Positions 6,317 to 30,620 of a DNA stretch of 30,620 bases are shown here, piece by piece. Below the pieces are notes generated by a model. It made no database searches. It saw only the letters and a list, made by a program, of their open reading frames with translations, and had not been told where the DNA came from. The DNA is taken from positions 1 to 30,620 of IMG/VR virus record IMGVR_UViG_3300002307_000164; one strand, 5' to 3'. Both the position numbers and the translations under genes were made by a program. This DNA is from a virus. Its lineage: Duplodnaviria > Caudoviricetes. Position 1 is the stretch's first letter. Each line of letters opens with the position of its first letter.

Positions 6317-7213
6317 ATGAAAACGAAAACAATTGAAAAAATAATTTCAAAAAAGTTTAACGAATTTTTATCTTCAATAAAAGATGAAAACGTTAAATTG
6401 TTAGTTAAGAAAAATACTATCATTACTGGTGGTTGTATTTCTTCAATGTTTTTAAACGAAAAAGTAAATGATTATGATTTATATTTTACAAATTATGAAA
6501 CAACATTAGCAGTTGCTAAATATTATCTTAACGTATTTAACGAAAAAAATAAAACAAGTGGTTATGTTTTAGATTGGGATAAACATAATAAAGAACAAAA
6601 CCAATTTAAAGTGCCGGATTTGGTAGAAGAATTTAGGGTTAAAATAATGTTTGATTCTATGGGTTCGGCTAAAGAAGTTGGATTACAAGATGAATCGGAA
6701 ATACATGAACTTGGAGATACAATTGAAGTTAAAGATGACGAAGGTGAAAAATACAGACCTATTTATATTTCATCAAATGCGATTACTCTTTCTTCACAAA
6801 TACAAATAATAGTACGTTTTTATGGTGAAGCAAATGAAATTCACGATAATTATGATTTTTCACATTGTACTAATTATTGGTTGTCTGAAAAAGAAAAACT
6901 TTACATAAACCAAAAAGCTTTGGAATGTATTTTAACAAAGGAACTTTTTTATATTGGAAGCAAATACCCGCTTGCTTCCATTATAAGAATTCGTAAATTT
7001 GTTAAACGTGGTTGGCAAATAAACGCAGGGCAAATAGTAAAAATGGCTTTACAATTAAATACATTTAATTTACTTGACCCTAAAGTGCTTGAAGAACAAT
7101 TAACTGGTGTTGACTTGTCATACTTTGCGCAATTAATAGAAGCAATACAAAATGCTAGTCCAGAAAAACTTAACTATCTTTATATATCAGAAATAATAGA
7201 CCGTATATTCTAA
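6317..7213 (+). CDS. nucleotidyltransferase, CCA-adding/poly(A)-polymerase-like (Pol beta superfamily)
   Basis: GGCISS...NDYDLY catalytic motif. 'DNYDFSHC' and 'KYPLASIIRIRKFVKRGW' echo the RRDFT and EDPLRxxR motifs of class II NTases. Confidence 0.7.
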   Translation: MKTKTIEKIISKKFNEFLSSIKDENVKLLVKKNTIITGGCISSMFLNEKVNDYDLYFTNYETTLAVAKYYLNVFNEKNKTSGYVLDWDKHNKEQNQFKVPDLVEEFRVKIMFDSMGSAKEVGLQDESEIHELGDTIEVKDDEGEKYRPIYISSNAITLSSQIQIIVRFYGEANEIHDNYDFSHCTNYWLSEKEKLYINQKALECILTKELFYIGSKYPLASIIRIRKFVKRGWQINAGQIVKMALQLNTFNLLDPKVLEEQLTGVDLSYFAQLIEAIQNASPEKLNYLYISEIIDRIF

Positions 7214-7232
7214 ATCAAACATAATATAGTTT

Positions 7233-7769
7233 ATGCATAAACACATCAATAACTTCAGAAAATTACTTATCGCATTAAATGACAAAAATCTTGTATTATG
7301 CGGTACTTTAGCATTGAAAATTCACGGATTAAAAATGCATAGGGAATCCGGCGATTTAGATGTTGCCATATATAAACCTACCGATAAACAAATGTCTATA
7401 CTTAGAAATTTATCTATGTTACAGACAAGAGAAGACGGCTTTCAAGAAGGACACGATAAAATACAGGACGAAGACTACCCAATTGATAATATAATTTTGA
7501 AGTTTCAAAAAAGTGGATACAAAATTGATATTCATTTAACAAAAGATGAACTTCCAAAAAATGTAGAGTTTCTTTACTATGAATTTAATACAAATGGTAT
7601 TCATCATATACCTATGACTTTCTTTTTTAAAGTACAAAACATAGCTTTAAATATAGAAGCTAAGAATTCTTACGCAATAAGAAATCAAGACGGATTGCGT
7701 TTGTATCGTAGGATAAAAGACGCAAAAGATTTCCAAGACCTAAAAAATTCTAACTTCAACCTTGACTAG
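7233..7769 (+). CDS. minimal nucleotidyltransferase-fold protein
   Basis: LCGTLALKIHG...RESGDLDVA (G...DxD), third acidic residue in KIDIH, and C-terminal K...R-x-KD-x-x-D motif (RIKDAKD). Confidence 0.65.
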   Translation: MHKHINNFRKLLIALNDKNLVLCGTLALKIHGLKMHRESGDLDVAIYKPTDKQMSILRNLSMLQTREDGFQEGHDKIQDEDYPIDNIILKFQKSGYKIDIHLTKDELPKNVEFLYYEFNTNGIHHIPMTFFFKVQNIALNIEAKNSYAIRNQDGLRLYRRIKDAKDFQDLKNSNFNLD

Positions 7770-8151: not shown

Positions 8152-8586
8152 ATGAACAATACAAATTATGATGTAGAATTAAGAATACAAACTAAATTAG
8201 CAATAAAATGGTCTGTTTTGGGGCTATTAATTATTGTTGTTTTAGCTTGTACTTGTATGATTGGCTGTCCTTCATACAAAGTTTACACCTCTAAAAAAGA
8301 AGGTGAAGCTATTTTAGCACATGCTCAATCATCAAGAGAGGTTGCGGTTGCCGAAGCAAAAGCAAAAATGGAAAGTTCTGCTTTGCTTGCACAAGCAGAT
8401 ACTATAAGAGCGCATGGCGTAGCAAGGTCTAATGTTATAATAGGTCAATCTCTTAGTGACGCTTATCTTCATTGGTATTGGCTTGATAATATAGATAAAA
8501 ATCCAAATGCTGTTATTTATGTTCCAACAGAAGCAAATATGCCAATAATGGAAGCTGGAAAAAGAATTGATATAAAACAAAAATAA
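8152..8586 (+). CDS. membrane protein with SPFH/prohibitin-like coiled-coil C-terminus
   Basis: One TM segment (WSVLGLLIIVVLACTCMIGC), Ala/Glu-rich coiled coil, and 'ARSNVIIGQSLSDAYLHWYWLD...VIYVP' resembling band-7 C-termini. Confidence 0.6.
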   Translation: MNNTNYDVELRIQTKLAIKWSVLGLLIIVVLACTCMIGCPSYKVYTSKKEGEAILAHAQSSREVAVAEAKAKMESSALLAQADTIRAHGVARSNVIIGQSLSDAYLHWYWLDNIDKNPNAVIYVPTEANMPIMEAGKRIDIKQK

Positions 8587-9583: not shown

Positions 9584-9906
9584 AAACACTTCTGGTTATT
9601 TCCAACAACTTAGACGATGCAATTGACAAAGCAATTGCAATAGGGGTTTGTTTTTATAATAGAAACGAAATAAAAAACCGTGTAACAGAAAGAACAAACT
9701 TAACAAAAGAAACTAAGTGTGTTATATTTCATTGTATGGGAATGGAGGGACTTAAGTTATTAGCAAATAAACACGATGACAAATATACTAGGATTGTTGT
9801 TGGAACATTTAAGTTACCGCCGGAAGAAGAAAGAAAACAATGGTTAACAAGGGGGTTTGTTATTATTAATTTACGTGAAGACTTTATAAGTAAAATACTA
9901 TGGTAG
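9580..9906 (+). CDS. hypothetical protein
   Basis: GTG 9580 overlaps the MTase TGA (GTGA). Its stop overlaps the next start. Confidence 0.6.
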   Translation: MKTLLVISNNLDDAIDKAIAIGVCFYNRNEIKNRVTERTNLTKETKCVIFHCMGMEGLKLLANKHDDKYTRIVVGTFKLPPEEERKQWLTRGFVIINLREDFISKILW

Positions 9907-10766
9907 ATTTCGAATTCGGTCTTGATAGCTTTTATTCCGGTTGGAAGCCAGTTTGCAAAGAAGTAATATTGGAACACAACCAAAATATTAAACAAGCCGA
10001 ATACTTCAATTCGTTTATATATCAACAATATAATGGAATGAAGTATAAATCGCTTGATGACGGTGAAATAGCCGTTATTCGTCTTGTTCCTATCATGGGT
10101 AACTATAACGCTATTCGTTATTGTGGTGGGTACGGTTCAAAAAGTTCATCTACGTTATCATATAACGGATTCACGCTTAGGGGTTCAGACATAACCGAAG
10201 GAGGAAAACCCGATGATTTCGGTAGTGAATTTGTTTATGATGCAAACGAACTTATTATGATGCATGGTAAGAAGTTTGAAAGAATAAGAAACACAATAAA
10301 CACAAGAAAATACAATAATGAATTTTCTTTATTATTTGAAGAAAAAGATATTTTATTAGTTATAAACGAATGGTCTAAAGCTACAAATTCAAAACATCAA
10401 ATAAAACTTTTTGAATTCATAAAGAAAAATAAAGAACTTTGTAATTTTTTAACTGTATATACTCCTGAAAAAGAAATAATTGGAATATCTATCGTTGAAA
10501 AAATAAACGAAACTAACGGAGTTATAATACAGCAACTTATAAACCCATTGATTAAAGATAAAATAAAAGAACCAAACATATTGATTCATTTTTATAATTG
10601 TCTACATCATAGTGGTATGAAGCTAAACATTGGCGGCGCAAGAAACGAACAGATACGTGTTGCCAAGTCTAAGCTTCAACCGTCACTAATGCTTCCAATA
10701 TACAGGAAAATATCAACTACGAAAAAACTATCTAAAACGGAATACGAACTATTAAAACATGGGTAA
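9900..10766 (+). CDS. DUF2156 / MprF C-terminal-like (Fem/GNAT-fold) aminoacyl-tRNA-dependent transferase-like protein
   Basis: 'EFVYDANELIMMHGKKFERIRNTIN' and C-terminal 'LNIGGARNEQIRVAKSKLQP' resemble the family signatures as I recall them (Y...L..L.GKK...KRN..N and N.....GLR..K..Y.P). No TM segments. Recognised by eye. Confidence 0.6.
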   Translation: MVDFEFGLDSFYSGWKPVCKEVILEHNQNIKQAEYFNSFIYQQYNGMKYKSLDDGEIAVIRLVPIMGNYNAIRYCGGYGSKSSSTLSYNGFTLRGSDITEGGKPDDFGSEFVYDANELIMMHGKKFERIRNTINTRKYNNEFSLLFEEKDILLVINEWSKATNSKHQIKLFEFIKKNKELCNFLTVYTPEKEIIGISIVEKINETNGVIIQQLINPLIKDKIKEPNILIHFYNCLHHSGMKLNIGGARNEQIRVAKSKLQPSLMLPIYRKISTTKKLSKTEYELLKHG

Positions 10767-13731: not shown

Positions 13732-14355
13732 TTATGATGTTAATTTATTATAAAATTCATTAGTATATTGTATCCTTTCTTGCAATCCAAGGATTCCGCC
13801 ATTTACCTTACGGCAAACAAGTTCGCAAATTGTATTAGAAATACCCTTGTCGCATATTTCAAAAATTCCTTTATTTTTAAAATATAAAACAGAAGAATCT
13901 AATCCAATTCCAATCATATCTGGATTATTTATATAATCTCTTCCTGTATCATGTGAAAGCTGTTGATAATTTACCTTTCCGGTAATTTGTACGCATCCCC
14001 TTCCACGATAAAGCCAACCTTCTCCCGATTCTTCCGAACCATTACCCATTCGATTAGAATAGATTCTATTTGCTATTTTTTGCGGATTATGTGCGTAATT
14101 ATTAGCATCTTCTATTCCATTGAAGTGAATTGGAAATATAGCTATTAATCTCGATGCTGAATAATTCAAATCTTCAACAAACTTAGTAAATCCTACAGAT
14201 TCTTCTTTACATTCACCAAGCAAATGACAAAGGCGAAATTCATTGTTTACACCTAAAGAATACAATATTGGACTAAGTTGTCCATCGTTATCTTTATCGT
14301 TAATTTCATTCCAAATATTTTCTGGAAGAATTTCAATTAAGCGAACTATATTCAT
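13732..14355 (-). CDS. endolysin, glycoside hydrolase family 19
   Basis: 'EES..F...EDLNYS', 'IANRIYSNRMGNG', 'YRGRGCVQITGKVNY', and 'VNGGILGLQER'. Confidence 0.93.
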   Translation of the reverse strand: MNIVRLIEILPENIWNEINDKDNDGQLSPILYSLGVNNEFRLCHLLGECKEESVGFTKFVEDLNYSASRLIAIFPIHFNGIEDANNYAHNPQKIANRIYSNRMGNGSEESGEGWLYRGRGCVQITGKVNYQQLSHDTGRDYINNPDMIGIGLDSSVLYFKNKGIFEICDKGISNTICELVCRKVNGGILGLQERIQYTNEFYNKLTS

Positions 14356-14987
14356 AATCCTTTTATAATTTGTATTGATGAAATACTGTCTATTTTAACA
14401 TCTGGACAATCACTCGATATATCCTGTTTGGTTACAATAGTTCCGGCTAAAAAAGAACGCAATCTAAAATGTGTTAAGTCATCAAAGTTACGTTTCTTCT
14501 TCCAATATATAGTTCCGGCAATATGTATATTTGTTTCTTCAATAAGCGTCAACGACTTTAAATCTTTAGAAACTTTTATAGTTCCATGTGAACATCCTGA
14601 ATTAATTGGAAATATTAGATTTTCACCAACCAAAACAATTGAATCTTTTACTTCAGCTTTAAATGAAAGTACATTAGAAATATGTTCATCATTTTTAAGA
14701 TTAAGTTGATTTTCACGTTGTTTTATTTCCGGTTTATAGAACGTATATACTTGTCTTTTCGTTCCGCTCGCAACCGTCTTTTCGGAATGTGACACACCTT
14801 TTATAATGGAATGAATAGTTGTATCGTTGTTCTTTATTTCACCAATAGTTTTTATTTGTTGAGCATCTTGTTTTATCAAGAATTCGGATTTGCTTTTACT
14901 TATTTTTTTATGGTTACAAGTCCATAAGAAATAACTAAGTGTTCCACAAATAGAAAGTACGATTAAAGCAGATAATAGTTTTTTCAT
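14352..14987 (-). CDS. membrane-anchored lysis accessory protein (spanin-like)
   Basis: N-terminal hydrophobic segment ending in ...FLWTC, beta-rich C-terminus, and ATGA overlap with the endolysin. Confidence 0.5.
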   Translation of the reverse strand: MKKLLSALIVLSICGTLSYFLWTCNHKKISKSKSEFLIKQDAQQIKTIGEIKNNDTTIHSIIKGVSHSEKTVASGTKRQVYTFYKPEIKQRENQLNLKNDEHISNVLSFKAEVKDSIVLVGENLIFPINSGCSHGTIKVSKDLKSLTLIEETNIHIAGTIYWKKKRNFDDLTHFRLRSFLAGTIVTKQDISSDCPDVKIDSISSIQIIKGL

Positions 14988-14989
14988 TT

Positions 14990-15451
14990 TTAAGATGGTT
15001 TTTGTGTAGTTTCAATCCATGAAGAACCATTGAAGTAATAGTTTTTTCCATCCGAAGTATTTACATATGCATCCCCTACTTTAGAATTTACGTGGTCTGG
15101 AACTTTTACTGAAAACGAACCAAGCCAATTTAATTTTTTAGGTTCAAATACTGTTTTTAAATCTACAACATCTGAATCTTTGTTTGGCGGTGTAGCTGCA
15201 ATAGCATCTGATATATTTTGTTGCGCTTGCGCTATCGTGGCATCTTTCTTTTGGCTACCTTCGGTGCTACCATAAAGATAAGAATACGCATCTTTGATAC
15301 ATACACCAAGTATGACACCCAAAATAACGTTAGCCATTTCGCGGTTTTCTGTTGGTATCTTACAGAATGTTAATGATAAAATGTATATAGCGGCAAATAT
15401 AAATCCACCTACTAAAAATCCAAACTTCTTACTTGGTTGTATGTTTTCCAT
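14990..15451 (-). CDS. putative holin (2 TM) with extra C-terminal domain
   Basis: Two hydrophobic helices followed by 'YLYGSTEGSQKKD', located in the lysis cassette. Confidence 0.6.
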   Translation of the reverse strand: MENIQPSKKFGFLVGGFIFAAIYILSLTFCKIPTENREMANVILGVILGVCIKDAYSYLYGSTEGSQKKDATIAQAQQNISDAIAATPPNKDSDVVDLKTVFEPKKLNWLGSFSVKVPDHVNSKVGDAYVNTSDGKNYYFNGSSWIETTQKPS

Positions 15452-15461
15452 ATTTATTTAT

Positions 15462-15857
15462 TTAAGGTTGACGAACTTGAATTGTATCATTTTTGTAAGC
15501 TCTTTCTTGATTCTTTTGATTTTGATTTTGAAATCTATTAGAAAGAATAAATTCATTTCTTAATTCTTTTATTGATGCATAAAAATTACTCATCATCTGT
15601 ATATGTGTGGAATCTTCAATTCTTTTATTGTTAGATACAATATTAGGAATGTTGCTTAATGTAATAAATATCTGCCTACCAGATTCTATCTTAGCACCTA
15701 CATATATTAAAGATAAACATATCGCTGCTCCAGCAACTATGATAGAATATGTAATATACCAACTACTTTTTTTATTTTTACCATCCTTATCTTTAGCCAA
15801 GTCGTTAAACCTTTCCTGCATTTCATCAAAGAAGGCTTTTTTTAAATCTTCGTCCAT
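15462..15857 (-). CDS. single-TM membrane protein (holin/antiholin candidate)
   Basis: One TM segment (YITYSIIVAGAAICLSLIYVG), upstream of the 2-TM gene. Confidence 0.5.
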   Translation of the reverse strand: MDEDLKKAFFDEMQERFNDLAKDKDGKNKKSSWYITYSIIVAGAAICLSLIYVGAKIESGRQIFITLSNIPNIVSNNKRIEDSTHIQMMSNFYASIKELRNEFILSNRFQNQNQKNQERAYKNDTIQVRQP

Positions 15858-16061: not shown

Positions 16062-16286
16062 TTAAGGTTTTATAATTTCAGAATCATTTATGTAAATAAA
16101 TTGGCAACGGGTACTATCAGGATTGCCGACATAGAATAGCATCATATTGTATGCCATGATGCTATCTCCCCATTTTGCAGAAATAAGTATGTCTCCATTC
16201 GTGCGCTTCATTGGTTTCATAACCCAACCTTTCTGAATCAGAAAGAAGGAAATTAGGTAAAGCGATATTTTTATATAATAGTTCAT
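16062..16286 (-). CDS. small protein with hydrophobic N-terminus
   Basis: MNYYIKISLYLISFFLIQKG...; 3-nt and 1-nt gaps to neighbours. Confidence 0.55.
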   Translation of the reverse strand: MNYYIKISLYLISFFLIQKGWVMKPMKRTNGDILISAKWGDSIMAYNMMLFYVGNPDSTRCQFIYINDSEIIKP

Positions 16287-16289
16287 TGT

Positions 16290-17000
16290 TTAATTATGCC
16301 ATGCCGAAAAACCACTAGGTATAGAATGAGCGAATGCTGTTGCACCATAATTAATAGTTGTTCCCGCTGTTGAATAATGACTAACACAGGGAGCCCATGC
16401 CCCAGAAAGCACACTGCCGCCGTTCGTAGGGTTAGCGCCTGTGGAAGGGTTAGCGATTGGACTGATTCCTATCCATGTTCCTGATGCGTCAGATACCCAA
16501 AAGTTTCCGGTAGTAGCGTCGAAAGCTAATCCTATGACGCTACCGGCTACATTACTACCTGTTCCGTAGTTTCGCAGGTTACTTCCACCGTTCCATATAT
16601 AGCCACCGAGCCAACCCCATCCGGCAGCATCTTGACCGCAAAATATATTTAGACCTGCGGTGTTTTTTGCAAGTCCGTAAGCGTCAAACCCAGCCCACGT
16701 AGTAAGCGTAAATTCACAGTACCATTTACCACCGCCGCCACCAACGGTTTTATATGCTCCCGTATTGGTGGTCAGGACACAAGCCGACCCGCTACTATTT
16801 GTAGCCGTAAGATTGCCACCTGATAATGTTTCATTCGTTCCTTTCTTTGCAGGGTCTAGTGTTGGGTATGTGACAGGCGTGGAAACGCCAGTCCCTAATG
16901 GCAACGGGTGTCCACGCCGCCTGTCTGCGAAAATGCTTTTCGGTATCAGCAATCCTGATGCTAAAGCAATTGAATTTTTTATGAAGTCGTTTCTATCCAT
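16290..17000 (-). CDS. SPRY/B30.2 (concanavalin-like) domain protein with Tat-like signal peptide
   Basis: GKWYCEF...VIGLAFDATTGNFW...WAPCVS...INYGATAF...PSGF pattern. N-terminus is MDRNDFIKNSIALASGLLIPKSIFA. TAATG overlap with the fibre gene. Confidence 0.75.
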   Translation of the reverse strand: MDRNDFIKNSIALASGLLIPKSIFADRRRGHPLPLGTGVSTPVTYPTLDPAKKGTNETLSGGNLTATNSSGSACVLTTNTGAYKTVGGGGGKWYCEFTLTTWAGFDAYGLAKNTAGLNIFCGQDAAGWGWLGGYIWNGGSNLRNYGTGSNVAGSVIGLAFDATTGNFWVSDASGTWIGISPIANPSTGANPTNGGSVLSGAWAPCVSHYSTAGTTINYGATAFAHSIPSGFSAWHN

Positions 17001-19831
17001 TAGTAACTTTGGAATCCAGTTAAAATAAATTTAGAAAGACCGCTATTGTACTCGAATTGTATTATCATCATTGTGGTGGTTACTGTGGTTGATGGCTTAG
17101 TGAGTGTTGGTGTTGTTCCGTCCATGTAATTCGTGCCGTACGTCAATGCCCTTGCCGCTGTTCCCGTCACATAAAATACTAATGGTTGGTGGTTCGCCCA
17201 CGTTCCTATCGGATTATTAAACAGCAATGCACCAGCCTGTGCTGTTATGTTGTATGTGACAGGATATAGCGTTCCTGTTACCGGAGTAACAGGTGTCATG
17301 CTTGTAGTGAAATTAGTTGTTGTAGTATCTTTAAAATAGTTTTCTACATATGCAGTACTTGCAGCTTTAGTACTATTGTCACCATTAGTTTGTGTTCCAA
17401 CAACTGGATTTGTCATTGTTGGTGAAGTTCCAAAAATAATATTTCCAGTTCCGCTTGCGCCAGTTGTAGTAACACCTTCTAAAATATAATGTCCGGTTGA
17501 TAGAATTGATAAAACGGAAGTGTAACTTGTGGAATTATCCGCTTTGGTATAAAAATCTATTTGTCCACCATTTCCATTTGCGCCACCACTTCCGGTTACT
17601 TTACCAACCATACCGCACATATTGTAATACGCAGGAGTTCCGGTATTTGAATATCCCCAAAAGCCATTATTTCCAATTATGTCACCAGATTGAAGTATTA
17701 AAGGACTTACAGAAGTACCTCTAGATGCTGAAGTACTCGTTCCGTTCATTGTAGTACTATTTACCGCCCCTTGTGCGCTATTTAATTGGTACATATCTAT
17801 TTCGCCATAAACGTTTATTGCGTCAGAACCAGTTGTATCACCATTGCAATTAACGCTTAATTTATGAGTATATGGACTATAAAAATGATTTAAATTATCT
17901 TGAACCATAGATGTGTAACCAAAAGAAGCAACACTTCCATAAGTCCAAGAAGTAGAAGCGTTAGTTCCACCATTTGCATAAGGTAGAATACCCGTAACCA
18001 TTGAAGTAAGGTTAGTAGACATGGTTACATTTCCAATAGCGGTAATCCTTCCCTTTCCATCTACCGTTACCGTAGGGGTTTGTGTTGCGCTCCCCCAATT
18101 TCCGGTATTGCTATTTACTGTTGCAAGGGCAGCTACAAGTGTGTTAGAAGTAGTGAAATCACCGCTAAATGTATTCCAAGTTGGTTTTCCGCTTGTTGTT
18201 GCAACTAAAACCTGTCCACTTGTTCCATTTAGTATTTCATCCCATTGACCGCTTACGTTATGATAGAATAGTGCGTAAGAGCTTCCGCCAGATACGGGGT
18301 CGCCTATGGCTAAAGACGATGCTCCCCACTTAGTACCGTCATATTTTAAGTATGAAGGATTAGTAGGTGCTGTTGTGTATATAGCAACACCTTGAATAGA
18401 TGTTGCATTTGCGCCAGTAGGACTTCCTGTTGTAATGGAAGTAATTCGTCCTTTTGCATCGGTTGTAATTATCGGTATTAATGATGAAGAACCATAAGTT
18501 CCTGCCGTTCCTACATTTGGCAAAGATAATGTTACTGTAGAACCAAGCGTAGCCGTTCCGGTAACATCACCAGTGTATGTAACCGTAGGTAATGAACTTA
18601 TATTAGACCAAGAATAATCAATAGCAACATCACTTAACATAGACACCCTACCTTGTGCATCTGTTGTTATTTGTGGTACTATTTTAGATGTTCCATGAGT
18701 TGAGGCAGTACCTACATTGGGCATACTAACAGTTCCAGTAGTTGTAAAAGTTCCCCCACTTAATCCCGCTCCAGCAGATACACTTGTAACAGTACCAACA
18801 TTCCAAGTTCTATTACTAGACAGGTCAAATGTTGTTCCATTAATAGTTAATGTTCTTGTTAATGGTACATAGGTAAGTGCCGCTAACCAACTAGGTAGAT
18901 ATGGTGACAACATAGCCGCCGTATCTGAATATTTTACTCTTTGATTTATTCTAAAAGATAATCCACCAGTATCCGTAGCGTTAGATGAAACATAATTTGC
19001 AACCGCCTGCGTTGTAGGGTATAAAGTATTATTAAGTGTAGAAAAGTTTGTAGCTTTATTAGCAACGTTTTCCGGAGTGTATCCCAATACGGGTTGATAC
19101 AAAAGCGTAGCCAACCACTTCGGAAGATATATTGATAGCATAGAAGCCGTATCGCTATATTTAACACGTTGATTTATTCGATAAGAAAGACCTCCTGTGT
19201 CTGTGCTATTTGCCGAAACATAATTAACTACCGCTTGCGTGGTAGGATAATGAACATTGTCTATTGCGGTAAACGATGAAACCTTGTTAGCAACGTTTTC
19301 CGGAGTGTATCCCAATATGGGTTGATAAAGTAAATCCGCTAACCATTTTTGTATGTATGGCGAAAGCATACTTGACGTATCGCTATACTTTACCCTTTGG
19401 TTAATACGATATGATAATCCACCAGTATCAGTACCGCCACTAATGGTAGATATTTTAGACCATATACTTTTTGTAGAAGTGTCAAAATCGTAGTGTGTAG
19501 TATATCCAAGAAGACTATCCCAATAAGCAACCCTCTTAACCAACGAATCAATCATTTGCTGAAGTGGAACACCACTTGCTCCTTGCGCTGGCGTAGTAAA
19601 AGCAAATCCGTTCCAATAGTAAAATATGCCATTGAATATGCGAATTCCGCCAAGTTCACCCCAACAACAATTTTTTAACGAAGTATCCTTATTAGGAATC
19701 AACAAGTCACCCTTAACACAAAACACGCCATTATTAACCAAGATTTGATTAGGTTTTGTACCCATCGTATCGTGGCCTTGACCGAAACAAAATATCGGTA
19801 TTAAAAACAGAATGCTCAGTATGTATTTCAT
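17000..19831 (-). CDS. tail-fibre/adhesin-like repeat protein (943 aa) with Sec signal peptide
   Basis: Start ATG 19831 is supported by the TAATG overlap with the upstream stop. N-terminus is MKYILSILFLIPIFCFG|Q. Rich in Thr/Gly/Ser, with YTPENVANK, GTVTSVSAGAGLSGG and TDAKGRIT fibre-type motifs. Confidence 0.8.
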   Translation of the reverse strand: MKYILSILFLIPIFCFGQGHDTMGTKPNQILVNNGVFCVKGDLLIPNKDTSLKNCCWGELGGIRIFNGIFYYWNGFAFTTPAQGASGVPLQQMIDSLVKRVAYWDSLLGYTTHYDFDTSTKSIWSKISTISGGTDTGGLSYRINQRVKYSDTSSMLSPYIQKWLADLLYQPILGYTPENVANKVSSFTAIDNVHYPTTQAVVNYVSANSTDTGGLSYRINQRVKYSDTASMLSIYLPKWLATLLYQPVLGYTPENVANKATNFSTLNNTLYPTTQAVANYVSSNATDTGGLSFRINQRVKYSDTAAMLSPYLPSWLAALTYVPLTRTLTINGTTFDLSSNRTWNVGTVTSVSAGAGLSGGTFTTTGTVSMPNVGTASTHGTSKIVPQITTDAQGRVSMLSDVAIDYSWSNISSLPTVTYTGDVTGTATLGSTVTLSLPNVGTAGTYGSSSLIPIITTDAKGRITSITTGSPTGANATSIQGVAIYTTAPTNPSYLKYDGTKWGASSLAIGDPVSGGSSYALFYHNVSGQWDEILNGTSGQVLVATTSGKPTWNTFSGDFTTSNTLVAALATVNSNTGNWGSATQTPTVTVDGKGRITAIGNVTMSTNLTSMVTGILPYANGGTNASTSWTYGSVASFGYTSMVQDNLNHFYSPYTHKLSVNCNGDTTGSDAINVYGEIDMYQLNSAQGAVNSTTMNGTSTSASRGTSVSPLILQSGDIIGNNGFWGYSNTGTPAYYNMCGMVGKVTGSGGANGNGGQIDFYTKADNSTSYTSVLSILSTGHYILEGVTTTGASGTGNIIFGTSPTMTNPVVGTQTNGDNSTKAASTAYVENYFKDTTTTNFTTSMTPVTPVTGTLYPVTYNITAQAGALLFNNPIGTWANHQPLVFYVTGTAARALTYGTNYMDGTTPTLTKPSTTVTTTMMIIQFEYNSGLSKFILTGFQSY
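18041..18724 (-). repeat. three dispersed ~28-aa repeats (..G..G.....P.(I/V)T(T/V)D..GR(I/V))
   Basis: Copies near 18641-18724, 18440-18523 and 18041-18127. Confidence 0.8.
18870..19430 (-). repeat. tandem 228-nt (76-aa) repeat, about 2.5 copies
   Basis: DTGGLS(Y/F)RINQRVKYSDT starts at 19429, 19201 and 18973 (period 228). A 31-nt identical stretch occurs at 19059-19089 and 19287-19317. Confidence 0.9.
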
Positions 19832-20181
19832 TAGTTTCCTACGTATTTTTGCAAGTGTCTTCTTGTCCAACGATAAAGACTATCTGCGTTTGGAAAATTA
19901 CCATAACTTGCATCACCATTTTGATAGTTTGTATCCACCAAATAGTTGCTAGTTATTGGCAATATTGAAACACCATTTGTTGTACTTAGTTTCATTTGCG
20001 TATCACCTTTTGGTGAAATATAAAACGAAGCAACAACATTACCACGAGTATAATCCATTGGTGGATTTCCACGTTGATATACGGTTACATAACCGTTAGT
20101 TCCGGTTGTAAGTATATATTTTGACGACTGTGCGTAAACCAACACATTCGTAAGCAACAAAAGAAAAAATAACTTCTTCAT
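19831..20181 (-). CDS. exported protein (116 aa), Sec signal peptide
   Basis: Likely start ATG 20181: MKKLFFLLLLTNVLVYA|QSSK. Confidence 0.75.
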   Translation of the reverse strand: MKKLFFLLLLTNVLVYAQSSKYILTTGTNGYVTVYQRGNPPMDYTRGNVVASFYISPKGDTQMKLSTTNGVSILPITSNYLVDTNYQNGDASYGNFPNADSLYRWTRRHLQKYVGN

Positions 20182-20191
20182 ATATGTATTT

Positions 20192-20707
20192 TTAGAGTGT
20201 CCAATAGTTACCGTAAACATCAACGTATATAACTGCTTTCTTTATTGCGGCAGATGTTGCAGGTGAAAGAAGGTATGGGGTTGCGGTTGCGCCGTTAAAT
20301 GAATGGTCGTGAAATATAGCCAACGTATCATTTACAACACCATTTGCAAGTATTCTTATTATTTGACCTGGCTTAAGATATGTTCCAGACAAAGTTATAG
20401 AATCAAGTTGGTAACTTGCAGAATCTATGAACAACGGATATGTACCAAGAACCGTATAGTTTCTTGATGTTGTTTTTTCAACACCATAAAACAAGCCGGA
20501 ATTTTCGTAAGTCTTTCCGGTTGCGTTTATAGCACCTACTGTATTTACAACACCACGCATAATAGCAACAGATTTAAAAATCTGTGGCTGTGTTTGCGTA
20601 TTAGGTAATCCGGTTATTGTACTTCCGGTTGGTGTTACCGCTTGTGCGTTAGCCGAAATCGTTGACAAGCATACGAACATAGCTAAAAGAAATAATACTT
20701 TTTTCAT
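20192..20707 (-). CDS. exported protein (171 aa), Sec signal peptide
   Basis: MKKVLFLLAMFVCLSTISANA|QAVT with A-x-A cleavage site and a beta-rich mature part. Confidence 0.8.
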   Translation of the reverse strand: MKKVLFLLAMFVCLSTISANAQAVTPTGSTITGLPNTQTQPQIFKSVAIMRGVVNTVGAINATGKTYENSGLFYGVEKTTSRNYTVLGTYPLFIDSASYQLDSITLSGTYLKPGQIIRILANGVVNDTLAIFHDHSFNGATATPYLLSPATSAAIKKAVIYVDVYGNYWTL

Positions 20708-20726: not shown

Positions 20727-21062
20727 TTAAGATACTGCGTTATAGCCTATTGAAAATTCACATTCTCCTGATAGTTCGTATTTAATCCTGAAGTTTTTAG
20801 GTATTGATTGAAAAAATCTTGAATCTTCAATTGAAGGATAAGTATATTTTCCAACTTGTACAATTGTTGGTATTTTTGCAAAGTCAAAATATTCTTTGCT
20901 TGCTTCATCCAAACATTGAAGTGTTAAGTCAAGCTTTCCGGTAAGTTCTTTAACGTTTATCATAAACAAAGCTGAAATAGAATTTGCTATATCACCAATT
21001 TTTTCGGTGAATCCGTCTTCTTTTACAACTTTATTATGAAACAAAACTAATGAGTAACTCAT
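20727..21062 (-). CDS. hypothetical late protein
   Basis: 111-aa ORF with a beta-strand-like pattern in the late operon. No signal peptide. Confidence 0.65.
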   Translation of the reverse strand: MSYSLVLFHNKVVKEDGFTEKIGDIANSISALFMINVKELTGKLDLTLQCLDEASKEYFDFAKIPTIVQVGKYTYPSIEDSRFFQSIPKNFRIKYELSGECEFSIGYNAVS

Positions 21063-21336: not shown

Positions 21337-22416
21337 CTACATTACTTGGGCATATAAAAATTCAAAATTATCACCATCCGAAAACCACGCACCACCCACG
21401 CTACCAAATTTACCCGTGTTAGTATCAAATGGTATATTTACCGGATTCCCGTTCTTGGTCATACCAGCACTGTTTACATAAGCACCTACAAGATTTGGTA
21501 ACGTAATAAAATCACCGTCTTTTGAAAGTGGATTTAACGGGTCTGCAATTGAAGGTGAATATTGTAAAAGTATTGTTTGAAGATTACAAAGTTGGTACAG
21601 TTGATTTGGGTCTGGGTTCGACACTACTTCAATGCTAATAGTACAAGTTAGCTTAAATGGATTTGGTGTTGGCGGAACTGGAAGTATTTGCTGTCCACTC
21701 CATTCATTTTTCCTGCATCCGCAATCATCATCAGAATAAATATTAATAAATTCGGTAGTTCTTTTTTCCATCGTTTCCCTATTCCACTTTTGACATTTTT
21801 TAGATGGATATAATGGAAGTGAAGAAATGTTGGCGCAAAGATATTGTTCCAAATAATCCTGAAATGGATTTATTCTATCAAGAAGCCACCTGTCGTTTAG
21901 ATAGCGCAAATCTTTTAAATCTATTCCAACACTAGAAGAAGCCTTTTCACCTACCAACGAGCCAATAGGATTATTTTTTTGTATTCCTTGATTAGTAAAT
22001 TGTGCGTAGTTTTCACTTAACGCAATAAAATAAACACAATTAAAAACAAAATCCCATAAAGCCGAATTCCACAAAGCAACATAAGGTGCGCCTACGGTTA
22101 CAAGACTTATAGAATTTACATAGTCTCCAATGTTAAGCAAAACTTTTGGATTTCCGGCTTGGTCTGTTCCAAATGTTTGATTTATAAAACCTTGCAAAGT
22201 TGCTTGATTTCCACTAGTAACTTGTACGTTTTTTTGATTACAAATATCGTTATATAGATTGTATCCAAGAACCGGAATAATCAAACGAACCTCTGCAATA
22301 GGTATTGCTGAAATCCATTTTTTACTATCTAAAGACGCAGCTGGTAACCGTGACGTACATTCGTCAGGTGTTATCAACATTGGCCTAGATAATGGATTTA
22401 CTGCGTACCTTCCCAT
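21337..22416 (-). CDS. putative head-tail adaptor/neck protein with C-terminal extension
   Basis: Immediately after portal. Helical N-domain (IIPVLGYNLYNDI...TNQGIQK...LPLY), then a Pro linker PVPPTPNP and an extra ~110-aa domain. Confidence 0.5.
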   Translation of the reverse strand: MGRYAVNPLSRPMLITPDECTSRLPAASLDSKKWISAIPIAEVRLIIPVLGYNLYNDICNQKNVQVTSGNQATLQGFINQTFGTDQAGNPKVLLNIGDYVNSISLVTVGAPYVALWNSALWDFVFNCVYFIALSENYAQFTNQGIQKNNPIGSLVGEKASSSVGIDLKDLRYLNDRWLLDRINPFQDYLEQYLCANISSLPLYPSKKCQKWNRETMEKRTTEFINIYSDDDCGCRKNEWSGQQILPVPPTPNPFKLTCTISIEVVSNPDPNQLYQLCNLQTILLQYSPSIADPLNPLSKDGDFITLPNLVGAYVNSAGMTKNGNPVNIPFDTNTGKFGSVGGAWFSDGDNFEFLYAQVM

Positions 22417-22417
22417 A

Positions 22418-23992
22418 TTATACGGTTTCTATAACTGATGAAGTTTTATTCTTTGGTAAAATAACTTTTATTCCGTTTACTAATCCTTCTGCGATATGCT
22501 TTTCCATACCGAACTTTAATACAAGAAAGTTTACCGCATTTGCATGTGGCAATATTCCGTTTCCAACTTCTTTAAGTACATTCAACAAAAGAACACCGCC
22601 GTTAACAGTAGTGCTCGCTTCTGTAGTATCATTAAAAAGATTAGAAACTTGTATGTCAAGATTATCACTATCCCAATCAGTACCAAGCCAATCGTTAGCA
22701 ATCTCGCATAATGGAACAATAAATCCGTCTTTTATAACCCTATGAATTGGCTTAATTACTGTTTTAATTTTTTGTTGATAAAGCTCGTTAAGATATGCAC
22801 CAGACTTTGCCTTAGTCATTCCATCCTTGTTTCCAAGAAACGCACCATCCCACTTATTAGCCATTATTATTTTATCCTTAATAGTAGAATCAAGTTCTAG
22901 GTACGAACCCTCTTGGTGTGTGCTGAACGGTTCCCACTTTGAATTAGTTACATTATCGTTGCTTGCAACAACCATAGTACGAAGACCCTTACCTTTTCCG
23001 GTAAAAGTATTAACCAAATCCCTTGCAAATTTCTTTTTTTCATCCGGCGTAATATTTCCGGCTATATGAAGCATACCGCCAATATGCATACCGTTTTTAA
23101 GATTATCGTGATTATAAACGGAACCAGCGTATTCAAGTTCTGCATCAATCATTGATTCAATCCAATCAGGCAATCCATAATGGTCGTATCCTGGAAAATC
23201 ATTTTTTAACCATAATGCGGTTCTCCATACTGGCGGAACTGGAACATTTTGATTATTAGTCTTGTCTTGAATCCAACACCCGCTTTCGTCATTTGCGCCG
23301 TCACCCATTTCGTAAAAAGGTATCCGAATGTTGTATTTTTGGGTAAGGTTCATATATCCACGTTTACGAAACCAACGTGATATTATCATAGCCTCTGATT
23401 CGTTATTTCCGTCAGGCCATGATTTACGACAATCTAATTGATTCTTGGCATAAACGTGTAGCCACCTTTCTCCACCCGTTTCACCCCTAACTATTTCAAT
23501 AGGGGAATTTCCGAAATTAAGATAGTTTACTACAATTTTTTTAAGTAATGAATTCGCAGATTCTTTTGGGTTTATACGCTTGTAAAAAGACTTCCATTCT
23601 TTGTCTTTTTTCTTGTCGTCTTCACCCTTCCAATAGAAACCGTCACCTATAATAAAATCGGTTTTGGAATTTAATACAGAACCTAAAGTGGAAGATTGAC
23701 TTCTTAATGCCAAAAGAAGATTAAAAAAAGTATCAAATCCGTAACAATCGTCATTTTGTTCTGTCAAAAACGGTATATACTTATTTCCACCTGGTGAAAA
23801 AGCATACCTATTTTCTAACTCTAATGGTACTGGATTTCTTACATTTATGTTTACTTCGTTCGTAACATCGGAAGTTCCGGTATCGCTAATTGCGCTTACC
23901 GGAACGTCTATTGATTTTTTTGCGGATTGTCTAGGATTTCGTTTTACAATGACCGCCTTTTTTGTATCTTGTATTTTTTTTGCGGTGGACAT
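22418..23992 (-). CDS. portal protein
   Basis: 524 aa; 'QSSTLGSVLNSKTDFIIGDG', 'NYLNFGNSPIEI', 'HYGLPDW', 'NLKNGMHIGGML' and 'VIKPIHRVI' follow the order of PBSX/HK97-type portal motifs. Confidence 0.8.
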   Translation of the reverse strand: MSTAKKIQDTKKAVIVKRNPRQSAKKSIDVPVSAISDTGTSDVTNEVNINVRNPVPLELENRYAFSPGGNKYIPFLTEQNDDCYGFDTFFNLLLALRSQSSTLGSVLNSKTDFIIGDGFYWKGEDDKKKDKEWKSFYKRINPKESANSLLKKIVVNYLNFGNSPIEIVRGETGGERWLHVYAKNQLDCRKSWPDGNNESEAMIISRWFRKRGYMNLTQKYNIRIPFYEMGDGANDESGCWIQDKTNNQNVPVPPVWRTALWLKNDFPGYDHYGLPDWIESMIDAELEYAGSVYNHDNLKNGMHIGGMLHIAGNITPDEKKKFARDLVNTFTGKGKGLRTMVVASNDNVTNSKWEPFSTHQEGSYLELDSTIKDKIIMANKWDGAFLGNKDGMTKAKSGAYLNELYQQKIKTVIKPIHRVIKDGFIVPLCEIANDWLGTDWDSDNLDIQVSNLFNDTTEASTTVNGGVLLLNVLKEVGNGILPHANAVNFLVLKFGMEKHIAEGLVNGIKVILPKNKTSSVIETV

Positions 23993-27892: not shown

Positions 27893-28105
27893 CTAATTAG
27901 GACATATCTTACATACAGTATTTTGAACCCTCTTCGGGGATATTCCTGTGTTGGAAGCAATTTGTCTTATTGATTGACCTTTCTTTTTACGTTTACAAAT
28001 TTCGAAGTTGTTCAAATCAAGTCCGGTAAGTTTTAAAAACTCGTCCATATCTTTTTTTGCCAATTCTAATAATTCTTCTCTTATCTTTTCTTCTTTCTCT
28101 GTCAT
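27893..28105 (-). CDS. small helix-turn-helix protein
   Basis: 'KKGQSIRQIASNTGISPKRVQN'. Confidence 0.75.
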   Translation of the reverse strand: MTEKEEKIREELLELAKKDMDEFLKLTGLDLNNFEICKRKKKGQSIRQIASNTGISPKRVQNTVCKICPN

Positions 28106-28106
28106 C

Positions 28107-30620
28107 TTACGCCTTATGTGTTTTATAGTAAAGTTTCTTATTTGCCGCAGTAGCTTTCTGTGGTTCGTAAACTATCTTTTGATTAGCCAAGTGTTTTCCC
28201 ATTTCACCTATTATACCATATAGATTTGAAATAGCTTTTTCATGAACGTCTATTTGACCACCGCCGCCGTTTCCATTTGATGAACTATATGAAGAACTAG
28301 AAAATCTTGGTGGTTTCAATTCGCTACCCATGTTTCCTAACTTAGAAAATGGTATAACTTGTGAACCTTTCTGTAAATTCATTAACGTAGGAACATTTGG
28401 TGACACGATAAGTTCATGTTCGTATTTATCACCTAACCATGCAAGACCTCCTGGATGCCTACCATCTCCAGTACCTTCACCGTAAACAGGAGCTGACTTC
28501 AACATATTTTCCTTAGCCAAGAATATAGCCGCTAGTGCTGATTCTTGTATAACAACCGAAGCAACACCACCCGTTTTAACCGCAACCGGAATTAATGATA
28601 TAGCCGCACTAGCATAATCAATCAAGGCTTGTTGTTCCGCACGTTTTTGGTCGGTTTTCATCTTTTCTTTTGAAGCCGCCAATTGCGCTATATAAAAAGC
28701 CTTGTCTTGATTTAAACGTTCATTATTGCTTTGCGTTTCGGAATCAAGAAGACGCTTATTCCAATCCATTGAACGTTTCTGAACTTCTTGTTTATACGCA
28801 TCCTGCTTTTCTAGTAATTGCATATAATCATTAGCAATCGAAGTTCCAACTTTAACCAATGCGTCTTTTAATTCTTGTGCGTCAATAATTTCTTTTTTGT
28901 TCGCTACGGCCTTATTATTTTTAGCCTTTGCTATTTGATTGTCGAGTTCTATTTGTTTTGCTTTAACAACATTCAATGCTTTTTCTGCTTCAATTATTTT
29001 ATTTTCATCACCAACTATTTTAGCTGCATCAAGATTTTTTTGCGACCTATCTACTTGGTCATTTATTCCACCTTCTTGCTCAAGTTGCGTTCTTGCTTTT
29101 ACAATATCTTCGTTTGCGGTGTTTATTATTTCATTTTTATTTATTTTTTCAATCTTTCTGTCCTTTTTACCTTGAGAACCTCTGCCGTTTAATACTTTAG
29201 TTATAGCATCAAGAGATATAGTATTAATTTGTTTTAATACTATGTCAGAAGTTTCAGCCATAAGTTTAGAAATTTTTTCAAAATAAGACATTCCTAAATT
29301 AAGTAGGTCACGATATTCCGCATCGTTTATTTGTTTTATTTTGTTTTTGCGCTCCTCTTCAATTTGTATTAATCTCTTGCTCAACTCTTTTTGTTGGTCT
29401 TCTTTTGTTTTACCATACGCAATTGTGTTAGATTCCGCTTCGGCTTGTTGTTTATCTTGTAATGCCTTTAATTCGGTTTGCTTACGTTGCGCTTCCGAAC
29501 CTTGCATTAAAGCATTAACCGAAAATCCATAATCGCTAGTTCCATATTCGGAATAGAACTTAGAATTTGAAGCTTGTTCACTTGCTTGCTTGGATAAATA
29601 TTGTGCGGAAGAAACATCAGCTTTTCTTTTATTTTCAATAAGTTTATTAAGCTTATCAATAGTTTCGTTGCTATGTGTTTTTCCAAGTATGCTATCAAAC
29701 AAAGATATTGATTTGTCATAGTCTTCACCATTACGATTTTGCGGCGCAATAGATTGAATAAAATCATCCTTGTCTTTTCTTATTTTTTTGTAAAATTCGG
29801 AATACTGGTTTTCGTTATCCTTTATTATCCTATCCGTACTTTCAAGTTGTTCTTTTTCACCAAGTAAAGTATTTTCGGATTTAACTTGCCTAAATTGTGA
29901 TTCAAGTTCTATTCTTTTTTTGTAAGAAGTTTCTTCGTTCTTACTTTTTAGTTCGGTTGAAAGATTTTGTTGCGCTTCGGTGTTTGTTTTCAACTCCTGT
30001 TCATTCTTCTTCAATTGTTCACCAACATCCAAAAGATTTTTATGGTATATTTCTAACAAGTTTGCACCTTTATCATATCCTTTATTTAATTCTTCAATAA
30101 ACTTAGTTTGTAAAGCAAAAGGTATATTAGAGCGACTTACTGCGGTTGAAAGCTTATTATACAATTCATATTGAACATTTATATTACTTTCAGGTTCGCC
30201 ATGCCTAAGCATAACTTGAGTTTCTGGTTTAGCAACAAATTCTTCTGCGTCCTTTTGACCTTTCTCTAATATACTAACATTTTCTTTAAGTATTTTATTG
30301 TGATTATCAAGAATGTGTTCTTCGGCTTGAAGTGTTCTCATTCTAGCTTCCGCCATCCTTACATCAGCTTCACCTTGTTTATTCTTTTCAATACCCAAAG
30401 CCTTTATAGCCGCTTCGTTGCGTTTTGCACCGTCAACGCCTTCGTCCATACCTTCGTATAATGTATTCTGTTGGTCACGAAGTTTAAGCATTTCATCGTT
30501 AAGTTCTTTGAATGACTTAATTAAAGCTTCGTTTGCGGCTTGAAGTTTTTCTTGCGCTTGTTCATAAGCCTCTGTTCCTGGTATTGCTGCTTTTATAGCA
30601 TCAGTTACTTTAAATATAGC
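28107..30620 (-). CDS. tail tape measure protein (partial; open at right edge)
   Basis: The frame stays open for 43 further codons from 30491 to the window end. Long Lys/Glu/Ala/Gln-rich coiled coil, with C-terminal 'YGEGT...HPGGLAWLGDKYEHELI...LQKGSQVIP' typical of TMP ends. Confidence 0.8.
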   Translation of the reverse strand, partial: AIFKVTDAIKAAIPGTEAYEQAQEKLQAANEALIKSFKELNDEMLKLRDQQNTLYEGMDEGVDGAKRNEAAIKALGIEKNKQGEADVRMAEARMRTLQAEEHILDNHNKILKENVSILEKGQKDAEEFVAKPETQVMLRHGEPESNINVQYELYNKLSTAVSRSNIPFALQTKFIEELNKGYDKGANLLEIYHKNLLDVGEQLKKNEQELKTNTEAQQNLSTELKSKNEETSYKKRIELESQFRQVKSENTLLGEKEQLESTDRIIKDNENQYSEFYKKIRKDKDDFIQSIAPQNRNGEDYDKSISLFDSILGKTHSNETIDKLNKLIENKRKADVSSAQYLSKQASEQASNSKFYSEYGTSDYGFSVNALMQGSEAQRKQTELKALQDKQQAEAESNTIAYGKTKEDQQKELSKRLIQIEEERKNKIKQINDAEYRDLLNLGMSYFEKISKLMAETSDIVLKQINTISLDAITKVLNGRGSQGKKDRKIEKINKNEIINTANEDIVKARTQLEQEGGINDQVDRSQKNLDAAKIVGDENKIIEAEKALNVVKAKQIELDNQIAKAKNNKAVANKKEIIDAQELKDALVKVGTSIANDYMQLLEKQDAYKQEVQKRSMDWNKRLLDSETQSNNERLNQDKAFYIAQLAASKEKMKTDQKRAEQQALIDYASAAISLIPVAVKTGGVASVVIQESALAAIFLAKENMLKSAPVYGEGTGDGRHPGGLAWLGDKYEHELIVSPNVPTLMNLQKGSQVIPFSKLGNMGSELKPPRFSSSSYSSSNGNGGGGQIDVHEKAISNLYGIIGEMGKHLANQKIVYEPQKATAANKKLYYKTHKA

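Follow-up and report, generated by a model that had tools for sequence, protein, structure and literature searches.

Fiber genes with signal peptides in a phage late operon

The IMG/VR virus record IMGVR_UViG_3300002307_000164 (Duplodnaviria; Caudoviricetes) is an entire viral contig of 30,620 bp, hereinafter the window, the sequence of which occurs in freshwater metagenome runs, two of which may be its source. Its minus strand carries a late operon that is packed from the portal gene through the endolysin gene with gaps of at most 19 nt. Within this operon lies a module of four consecutive genes for proteins of 171, 116, 943 and 236 amino acids (aa), of which the first three begin with a predicted signal peptide (leader) followed by Gln. 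A preliminary description of this DNA had reported four open reading frames (ORFs) with starts at 20707, 20181, 19831 and 17000; these positions, all on the minus strand, are confirmed, as is the reported TAATG coupling (at 19831 and 17000), the 171- and 116-aa genes are separated by 10 nt, and a fifth, 74-aa gene follows the 236-aa gene after 3 nt (Table 1).

Table 1. The leader module and the other mapped features of the late operon
Feature	Coordinates	Strand	Properties
171-aa gene	20192..20707	(-)	Sec-type leader of 21 residues, then Gln
116-aa gene	19831..20181	(-)	Sec-type leader of 17 residues, then Gln
943-aa fiber gene	17000..19831	(-)	Sec-type leader of 17 residues, then Gln
236-aa SPRY-like gene	16290..17000	(-)	Weak leader, Asp at +1; 4 Cys; zero sequons
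74-aa gene	16062..16286	(-)	N-terminus hydrophobic; Gln site absent; D-S motifs, three
111-aa leaderless protein directly upstream of the module	20727..21062	(-)	No family match
Portal and DUF6712-like adaptor genes	21337..23992	(-)	PF04860 E 1e-11; PF20459 E 1.4e-5; leaderless
Lysis cassette: two holin-like genes, one spanin-like gene, leaderless GH19 endolysin	13732..15857	(-)	phrog_181 endolysin E 9e-45
Tape-measure-like gene	27893-30620	(-)	Truncated at contig end; lies upstream of head genes

In Bacteroidota, substrates of signal peptidase I (SPI) carry Gln at position +1 and are cleaved to yield an N-terminal pyroglutamate (the Q-rule; PMC5837995). We called leaders with a rule of our own, namely, a basic N-region, an 8-residue hydrophobic core, a small residue and then Gln, and this rule passes 3 of the 41 window genes, those for the 171-, 116- and 943-aa proteins. 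By the same rule, these three proteins have the tripartite Sec/SPI leader of Q-rule substrates, and the 236-aa protein does not. Chance hydrophobic starts were rejected, given that control proteins fail the rule, and so were upstream TTG starts, which would break the TAATG coupling and disagree with the homologs, which begin at the leader.

The preliminary description attributed signal peptides to all four genes and took the start of the 236-aa protein for Tat-like. The weaker half of this claim concerns that last protein, the leader of which has a weak core (mean hydropathy 2.29); the twin-arginine translocation (Tat) label is unproven because the protein has R-N where the Tat motif has R-R, lacks an NCBIfam match and stands alone among the related loci that were scanned, where no other Tat-like starts were found. 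The genes in the same slot of two other phages (L002 and G403) have ordinary Sec leaders with Gln, and export of the 236-aa protein, by whichever route, is likely from its sequence. The hydrophobic N-terminus that had been noted for the fifth gene is present, and its product is possibly exported or membrane-bound. Also in agreement with the earlier account, no C-terminal sorting domain for type IX secretion (T9SS) was found in the five module proteins with a library that detects this domain in control proteins, and T9SS secretion was rejected. The four leader proteins have no lipobox or membrane anchor, and none of the five has a Pfam match.

Conservation of the leaders

The check suggested in the preliminary description, whether homologous fibers keep their signals, came out in favor of the leaders: the rule passes 33 of 53 fiber homologs, every one with Gln, compared with 0 of 51 portal proteins. 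Among the 20 homologs that fail, 4 carry a basic extension ahead of a leader with Gln, 3 look truncated and the remainder are ordinary leaderless proteins. The extension-type proteins form a fiber family of their own, with a conserved basic stretch of about 40 residues preceding the ordinary leader and Gln, represented by fibers of G409, G414 and G416 (L289:4347-7982, L294:6665-10228 and L296:2335-5997) and by P0047, P0051, P0052 and P0054; candidate explanations for this stretch are a two-arginine variant, a virion anchor and a device that times translation.

Portal-linked relatives (L001, L002, L004 and L010) have leader-bearing genes with Gln at the same slot, including homologs of the 171-, 116-, 943- and 236-aa proteins; the stretches L005, L008 and L009 stop before the slot and so are uninformative on the presence of the module. 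All three same-slot homologs of the 171-aa protein have a leader and Gln, and D102 and D127 are invariant D-S/T positions at 20-28% identity. The close homologs of the 116-aa protein all have a leader (5/5), in 4/5 cases with Gln.

An O-glycosylation signature on the exported proteins

The O-glycosylation motif of Bacteroidota is D-S/T-hydrophobic (hereinafter sequon), and only non-cytoplasmic proteins are modified, usually near-fully (PMC12871550, PMC8729774). Sequons are present in the three leader-bearing genes of the module with Gln and missing from the SPRY-like protein. The 171-aa protein has 3 of them against 0.5 expected; in the 943-aa protein, 11 of the 13 D-S/T pairs fall within residues 18-320 (3.0 expected, p 2e-4), with 2 beyond against 6.2 expected. 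Pooled over the 171-aa and 116-aa proteins and the N-terminal part of the fiber, full motifs number 9 against 2.0 expected (p 2e-4), compared with 2 against 4.9 in the cytoplasmic structural proteins of the window. The 74-aa protein has 3 D-S/T pairs where 0.4 are expected (p 0.004, uncorrected). Sequon-rich as well, at window positions 14352-15857, are the spanin-like gene (3 against 0.7) and one holin-like gene (2 against 0.3; uncorrected p 0.03 each), and in L001 a gene that lies between those for the tail hub and the tape measure (L001:1168-1470) encodes a 100-aa lipoprotein-like protein with many D-S/T motifs.

Among the homologs, the observed-to-expected sequon ratio over the first 300 residues is 3.64 in the 33 leader-bearing fibers (173 against 47.5) and 1.02 in 70 leaderless viral fibers (113 against 110.5), a difference with a Mann-Whitney p of 2e-9 that is inflated by kinship. 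The reversed, N- and E- control motifs are alike in both groups, and G-S/T-hydrophobic differs mildly (1.47 and 1.11); with the search repeat deleted, a ratio of 2.74 is retained across 78 proteins. A repeat with sequons spaced 13-16 residues apart was found in 24 of 54 fiber hits, all of them leader-bearing, extended or truncated, compared with 0 of the 70 leaderless viral fibers. An independent IMG/VR scan for this repeat returned 140 stretches, from an estimated total of about 500. After removal of 43 open 5' ends and 7 duplicates from 107 ORF hits, 57 distinct viral ORFs were left, of which 49 have a leader with Gln and 5 have the extension and a likely leader; a further ORF has Thr at position -1 of its leader, and 2 are unclear. 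The same repeat was found in 1 of 401 Bacteroidota genomes (G687).

Because the leaders are conserved, follow the Q-rule and coincide with a sequon excess confined to leader-bearing fibers, export, which the preliminary description had proposed, is well supported, the Tat call apart; from these signatures, export of the module proteins appears very likely. Host O-glycosylation of the N-terminal stalk is the likely purpose of this export, a point that the earlier account missed, together with how widespread the arrangement is.

Fiber modules and predicted structures

The 943-aa protein is a mosaic of a sequon-rich N-terminal stalk (residues 18-320, three repeats), a G/S/T-rich shaft and a C-terminal beta-sandwich knob. 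Among its repeats is a generic phage-fiber module, and 70 of the 71 viral ORFs with this module are leaderless; as a marker of exported fibers, the GYTPENVANK-type repeat was rejected, with a leader in 1 of 71 ORFs once 41 short-flank loci were left out. The knob was modeled with predicted local distance difference test (pLDDT) values of 75-96 in a model that is unreliable across the first 225 of its 334 residues, and its best Foldseek matches are the capsid spike of Pa223 (E 8.8e-5) and the N-terminal docking part of CBA120 TSP4 (E 5.9e-3).

The Atlas structure of the 171-aa protein matches viral clusters described as T4 gp9/10-like or as a tail-fiber C-terminal knob, with template modeling (TM) scores of 0.54-0.73; the Atlas record begins at residue 10 and hides the leader. 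The 116-aa protein is a PH-like domain (model pLDDT 86.7) that also forms the N-terminal domain of leader-bearing fibers in L002 and L004. Its fold matches a leaderless 343-aa protein of Gundel_1 (E 5.9e-4, TM 0.67) and a tail fiber of Harreka_1 (E 0.026), the UniProt and GenBank entries being paired by protein length. The best match in the PDB (Z 5.6, root mean square deviation 3.4 over 82 residues) reflects a common arrangement only, all PDB Z scores being below 8. On these models, the 116-aa protein is a candidate anchor. The 236-aa protein matches phrog_10080 (E 9e-16), and both homologs found are leaderless, one of them (P0108) with PF00622; it is likely to be the receptor-binding tip.

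When three knob copies were modeled together with the SPRY-like protein, the prediction, scored on the SPRY partner only, reached 0.51, compared with 0.02 for the best control, with the runs agreeing in at least 84% of contacts and a partner pLDDT of at least 86. In a calibration that applies only roughly to this case, 116 of 157 solved pairs and 2 of 215 mismatched pairs attained the mark; those that did so with scores of at most 0.60 were just 18 of the 157 solved pairs and both mismatches. The model thus lends weak support to binding of the SPRY-like protein by the knob. The module, then, has the fiber-type modules, the knob folds and the late structural operon of Caudoviricetes tail fibers without their leaderless synthesis, so that the phage appears to have put leaders on standard virion modules.

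Evidence on virion membership

In 12 mapped loci that span sipho-, myo- and other phage types, the leader-bearing fiber follows tail or head-tail genes and mostly lies just before the lysis genes, and the core genes are leaderless. One myophage stretch, L174, in which no baseplate-J-like gene is evident, also has a 142-aa gene with a leader and Gln straight after a capsid-like gene (L174:15042-15467), a possible exported head decoration. In the siphophages G407, G408, G409, G412, G413, G414 and G416, the sole long G/S/T-rich ORFs carry a leader or belong to the extension type. Three of these seven records have terminal repeats and the others are 98-100% complete, with G407 put at only 60% by CheckV; the maps comprise ORFs of at least 130 aa and cover G407 except for 80 bp and G409 except for 890 bp. 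A PHROG scan of 43 chosen proteins covered six of the seven (G414 was left out; G411 was mapped over L216 only), and all tail-fiber and spike matches in these six siphophages are leader-bearing or extension-type proteins. In two siphophage records, a match to the S74 chaperone lies inside a leader-bearing gene.

Cultured phages provide a second line of evidence. Proteins gp091-094 of Cellulophaga phage phi10:1 and gp085-087 of phi18:3 have a leader with Gln and are annotated as structural from experimental tandem mass spectrometry (MS/MS), and the core virion proteins of both phages have no leader. An unrelated 80-kb myophage, G403, encodes a fiber, a lectin-like protein and a small protein, each with a leader and Gln, between its head-tail and sheath genes (C1:16034-18932). 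In the cultured phage Gundel_1, gene 81 starts with a leader and Gln among leaderless fiber-like genes (L318:6512-7360). The complete genomes and the MS/MS-annotated proteins of cultured phages lend indirect support to the attachment of leader-bearing fibers to virions.

Organization of the late operon and the rest of the window

The placement of the cluster between portal/neck and lysis genes in the preliminary description is borne out by a PF04860 portal, a DUF6712-like gene and a Clp-type protease upstream and a GH19 endolysin downstream. The operon starts with the tape-measure-like gene, a small helix-turn-helix gene, the Clp-type head protease and three unassigned genes that can be read as putative decoration, capsid and tail tube genes; the portal, the DUF6712-like adaptor, an 84-aa Cys-rich gene, the 111-aa gene, the leader module and the lysis genes follow. 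The holin and spanin labels are putative, being derived from hydropathy. A tape measure gene upstream of the head genes is common to G002, G404, G408, G409, G412, G413 and G414. Promoter and terminator scans gave motifs no more often than expected by chance, and with gaps of at most 19 nt between the genes, the stretch from portal to endolysin appears too tightly packed for the module to have its own promoter or terminator.

The 111-aa protein is a candidate cytoplasmic adaptor; small leaderless genes also precede leader-bearing fibers in L010, L149, L168 and phi10:1 (gp090), candidate parallels by position. The portal profile matches only 2 of 401 class-level genomes, one of which is the seed, so that the host is placed by phylum-type signatures only. 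Searches of cultured phages gave no match with the portal and only a generic Acinetobacter fiber segment with the fiber, and scans of viral contigs with the fiber alone and with the portal alone found nothing.

The three DNA runs compared with the window show no joints and 12 single-letter differences, 9 of which come from one short piece of another contig at 14466-14595. A variant in run X3 at window position 20668 lies inside the hydrophobic core of the leader of the 171-aa protein, where the residue stays hydrophobic. No RNA run is among the listed runs that contain the window sequence. Elsewhere in the window, positions 9900-10766 weakly match the C-terminal domain of phosphatidylglycerol lysyltransferase (PF09924, E 1.8e-5, under the cut-off), positions 6317-7769 hold a phrog_4400 gene followed by a nucleotidyltransferase-like gene with weak DUF4269 and AbiEii matches, and the early region includes a gene for a 144-aa membrane-anchored protein (8152-8586, phrog_11227).

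Relation to known systems

Known tail fibers of Caudoviricetes are made and attached in the cytoplasm and have no leaders. The module shares repeats, knob fold and late-operon position with such fibers and spikes (T4 gp9/gp10-like knobs, CBA120 TSP4 and S74-chaperoned proteins) but differs from them in having leaders. Three classical systems each resemble one part of the arrangement: pIII of filamentous phages is a leader-bearing receptor-binding protein, although membrane-anchored and belonging to an extruded virion; Shiga toxin, a late cargo, is assembled in the periplasm and released by lysis but never joins the virion; and the P22 tailspike, a cytoplasmic protein, attaches late and spontaneously and can be added to heads in vitro.

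The Cellulophaga genes show the same combination of leader and Gln and are likewise flanked by tail or structural genes on one side and by lysis genes on the other; their records are silent on leaders. The Gln at +1 and the D-S/T-hydrophobic motif are common to the module and to the Q-rule and general O-glycosylation systems of Bacteroidota, which are described for host proteins. Q-rule genes of unknown function have been listed in Porphyromonas phages, one being for a 144-aa protein without a fiber annotation (PMC10367356). The MAT fibers of Bdellovibrio have a signal peptide, a conserved N-terminal domain, a phage-like fiber and, in some cases, S74 (PMC10769870); these are chromosomal and displayed on the cell, whereas the module lies in a virion operon, and the match of the 943-aa knob to the C-terminal domains of Bd1334 is weak (E 0.37). 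A further neighboring case is a phage tail protein methylated by a host enzyme (PMC13445384). The absence of signal peptides has itself been taken as a sign of phage origin (PMC6199706), and the term "signal peptide" does not occur in the excerpts of the paper that describes Gundel_1 and Harreka_1 (PMC8776804). In the open-license PMC and bioRxiv literature (subscription papers are not covered), we found no description of exported virion fibers in tailed phages.

A proposed assembly pathway and its alternatives

Considering the genes alone, we deem it probable that the fibers are exported, likely glycosylated by the host, and joined to virions at lysis. From the three genes whose leaders are followed by Gln at +1, the sequon enrichment, the fiber modules and the tight packing of the late operon, we infer the following sequence of export, cleavage, glycosylation, trimerization, SPRY-knob binding and virion attachment. 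The late genes for the fiber, knob and tip proteins would be expressed with host-type signal peptides; Sec would carry the products to the periplasm, where cleavage would leave a Gln that becomes pyroglutamate. There, the host would O-glycosylate the N-terminal stalk, the fiber would trimerize, and the fiber, knob and tip would assemble, with the SPRY tip bound to the fiber knob. Docking onto finished virions would take place via either the 116-aa domain with its PH-like fold or a small cytoplasmic adaptor, once the holin has opened the inner membrane and while the outer membrane is still intact; the holes would have to be large because the endolysin is leaderless. The module of this lineage is likely not the sole receptor-binding device but an accessory neck or side fiber.

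Several observations weigh against this pathway. All signal calls come from our own rule, and the homologs are kin to one another, so that the p values overstate independence. The seven Cellulophaga leader proteins have no sequon excess, for which reason glycosylation is not a general reason for export; those compared have no BLAST homology to the module at E 1e-4, and co-purification may explain their MS/MS annotation. No terminase or tail-tip gene is present in the window, and G002 has tail-tip-type genes upstream of its tape measure gene; because the tail-tip genes of the window likely lie beyond the contig end, a leaderless fiber may exist in this phage. Receptor binding could also be a function of the hub proteins (685-839 aa), which are leaderless.

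Other objections feed into specific alternatives. The module could be a host-surface adhesin cassette, with fibers that infected or lysogenic cells display, that are swapped with chromosomal fiber clusters and that never enter the virion. The chromosomal locus G687:C20, a cellular counterpart of the phage module, fits this picture, with the sequon repeat in leader-bearing fibers with Gln beside two T9SS type A cargo genes, as do the cell-encoded, leader-bearing MAT fibers (PMC10769870); likewise, the module is dispensable in the relative L006, where the slot has no such gene, and additional in G403, which has a leaderless 552-aa tail protein past its baseplate genes. The chromosomal fibers (L315, L316) are very large, with up to 56 sequons per ORF, and a fumarate hydratase gene and other leader genes are found nearby. 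We nevertheless rate an adhesin as fairly unlikely, given that the four proteins have no T9SS domain, lipobox or membrane anchor, that the operon appears to have no space for a promoter or terminator of the module's own, that the repeat is found in a single one of the 401 Bacteroidota genomes against an estimated 500 or so viral stretches, and that seven near-complete phages have no other fiber-like gene set.

The same lack of an anchor, which makes the mature proteins soluble, and the place just upstream of the lysis genes would suit a late periplasmic cargo freed at lysis in the manner of Shiga toxin, such as decoys, receptor blockers or inhibitors of competitors, and the occurrence of the module in unrelated virion types strains the notion of a single docking site. 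Free cargo is, however, unlikely in view of the leader-bearing proteins of two cultured phages annotated as structural by MS/MS, the leaderless phage proteins, one named a tail fiber, that are headed by the 116-aa domain, and the phages that have no other fiber-like gene. Finally, the virion form might not use the leaders at all, if an internal start or an uncleaved leader yielded ordinary cytoplasmic fibers. Residue 23 of the fiber, six residues past the predicted cut, is Met, a Met lies within 10 residues of the cut in 22 of 78 leader-bearing fibers against a background of 15%, and residue 10 is where the 171-aa protein begins in its Atlas record; but 56 of the 78 have no Met near the cut, and Gln at +1 and the sequon excess, which are absent from leaderless fibers, would be useless in the cytoplasm, making this possibility very improbable.

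Implications

Judged from the sequences compared, the leader-bearing fiber arrangement is real, conserved, widespread and apparently undescribed, and the proposed mechanism is plausible. More broadly and more tentatively, at somewhat short of an even chance, many Bacteroidota phages might build their virions in two compartments, with heads and tails made in the cytoplasm and with fibers and tips exported, pyroglutamylated, coated with the host's O-glycan on the periodic sequon repeat and attached during lysis. If so, each virion would bear the O-glycan of its last host, the rule of cytoplasmic completion of tailed-phage particles would be broken, and host secretion and glycosylation would become part of virion maturation. 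Such a mode of assembly would predict host-dependent, non-genetic virion surfaces; mutants in Sec, glutaminyl cyclase or glycosylation would be phage-resistant, and attempts to express these receptor-binding proteins in the cytoplasm would fail. It also bears on annotation, where signal peptides are currently used to call such genes bacterial.

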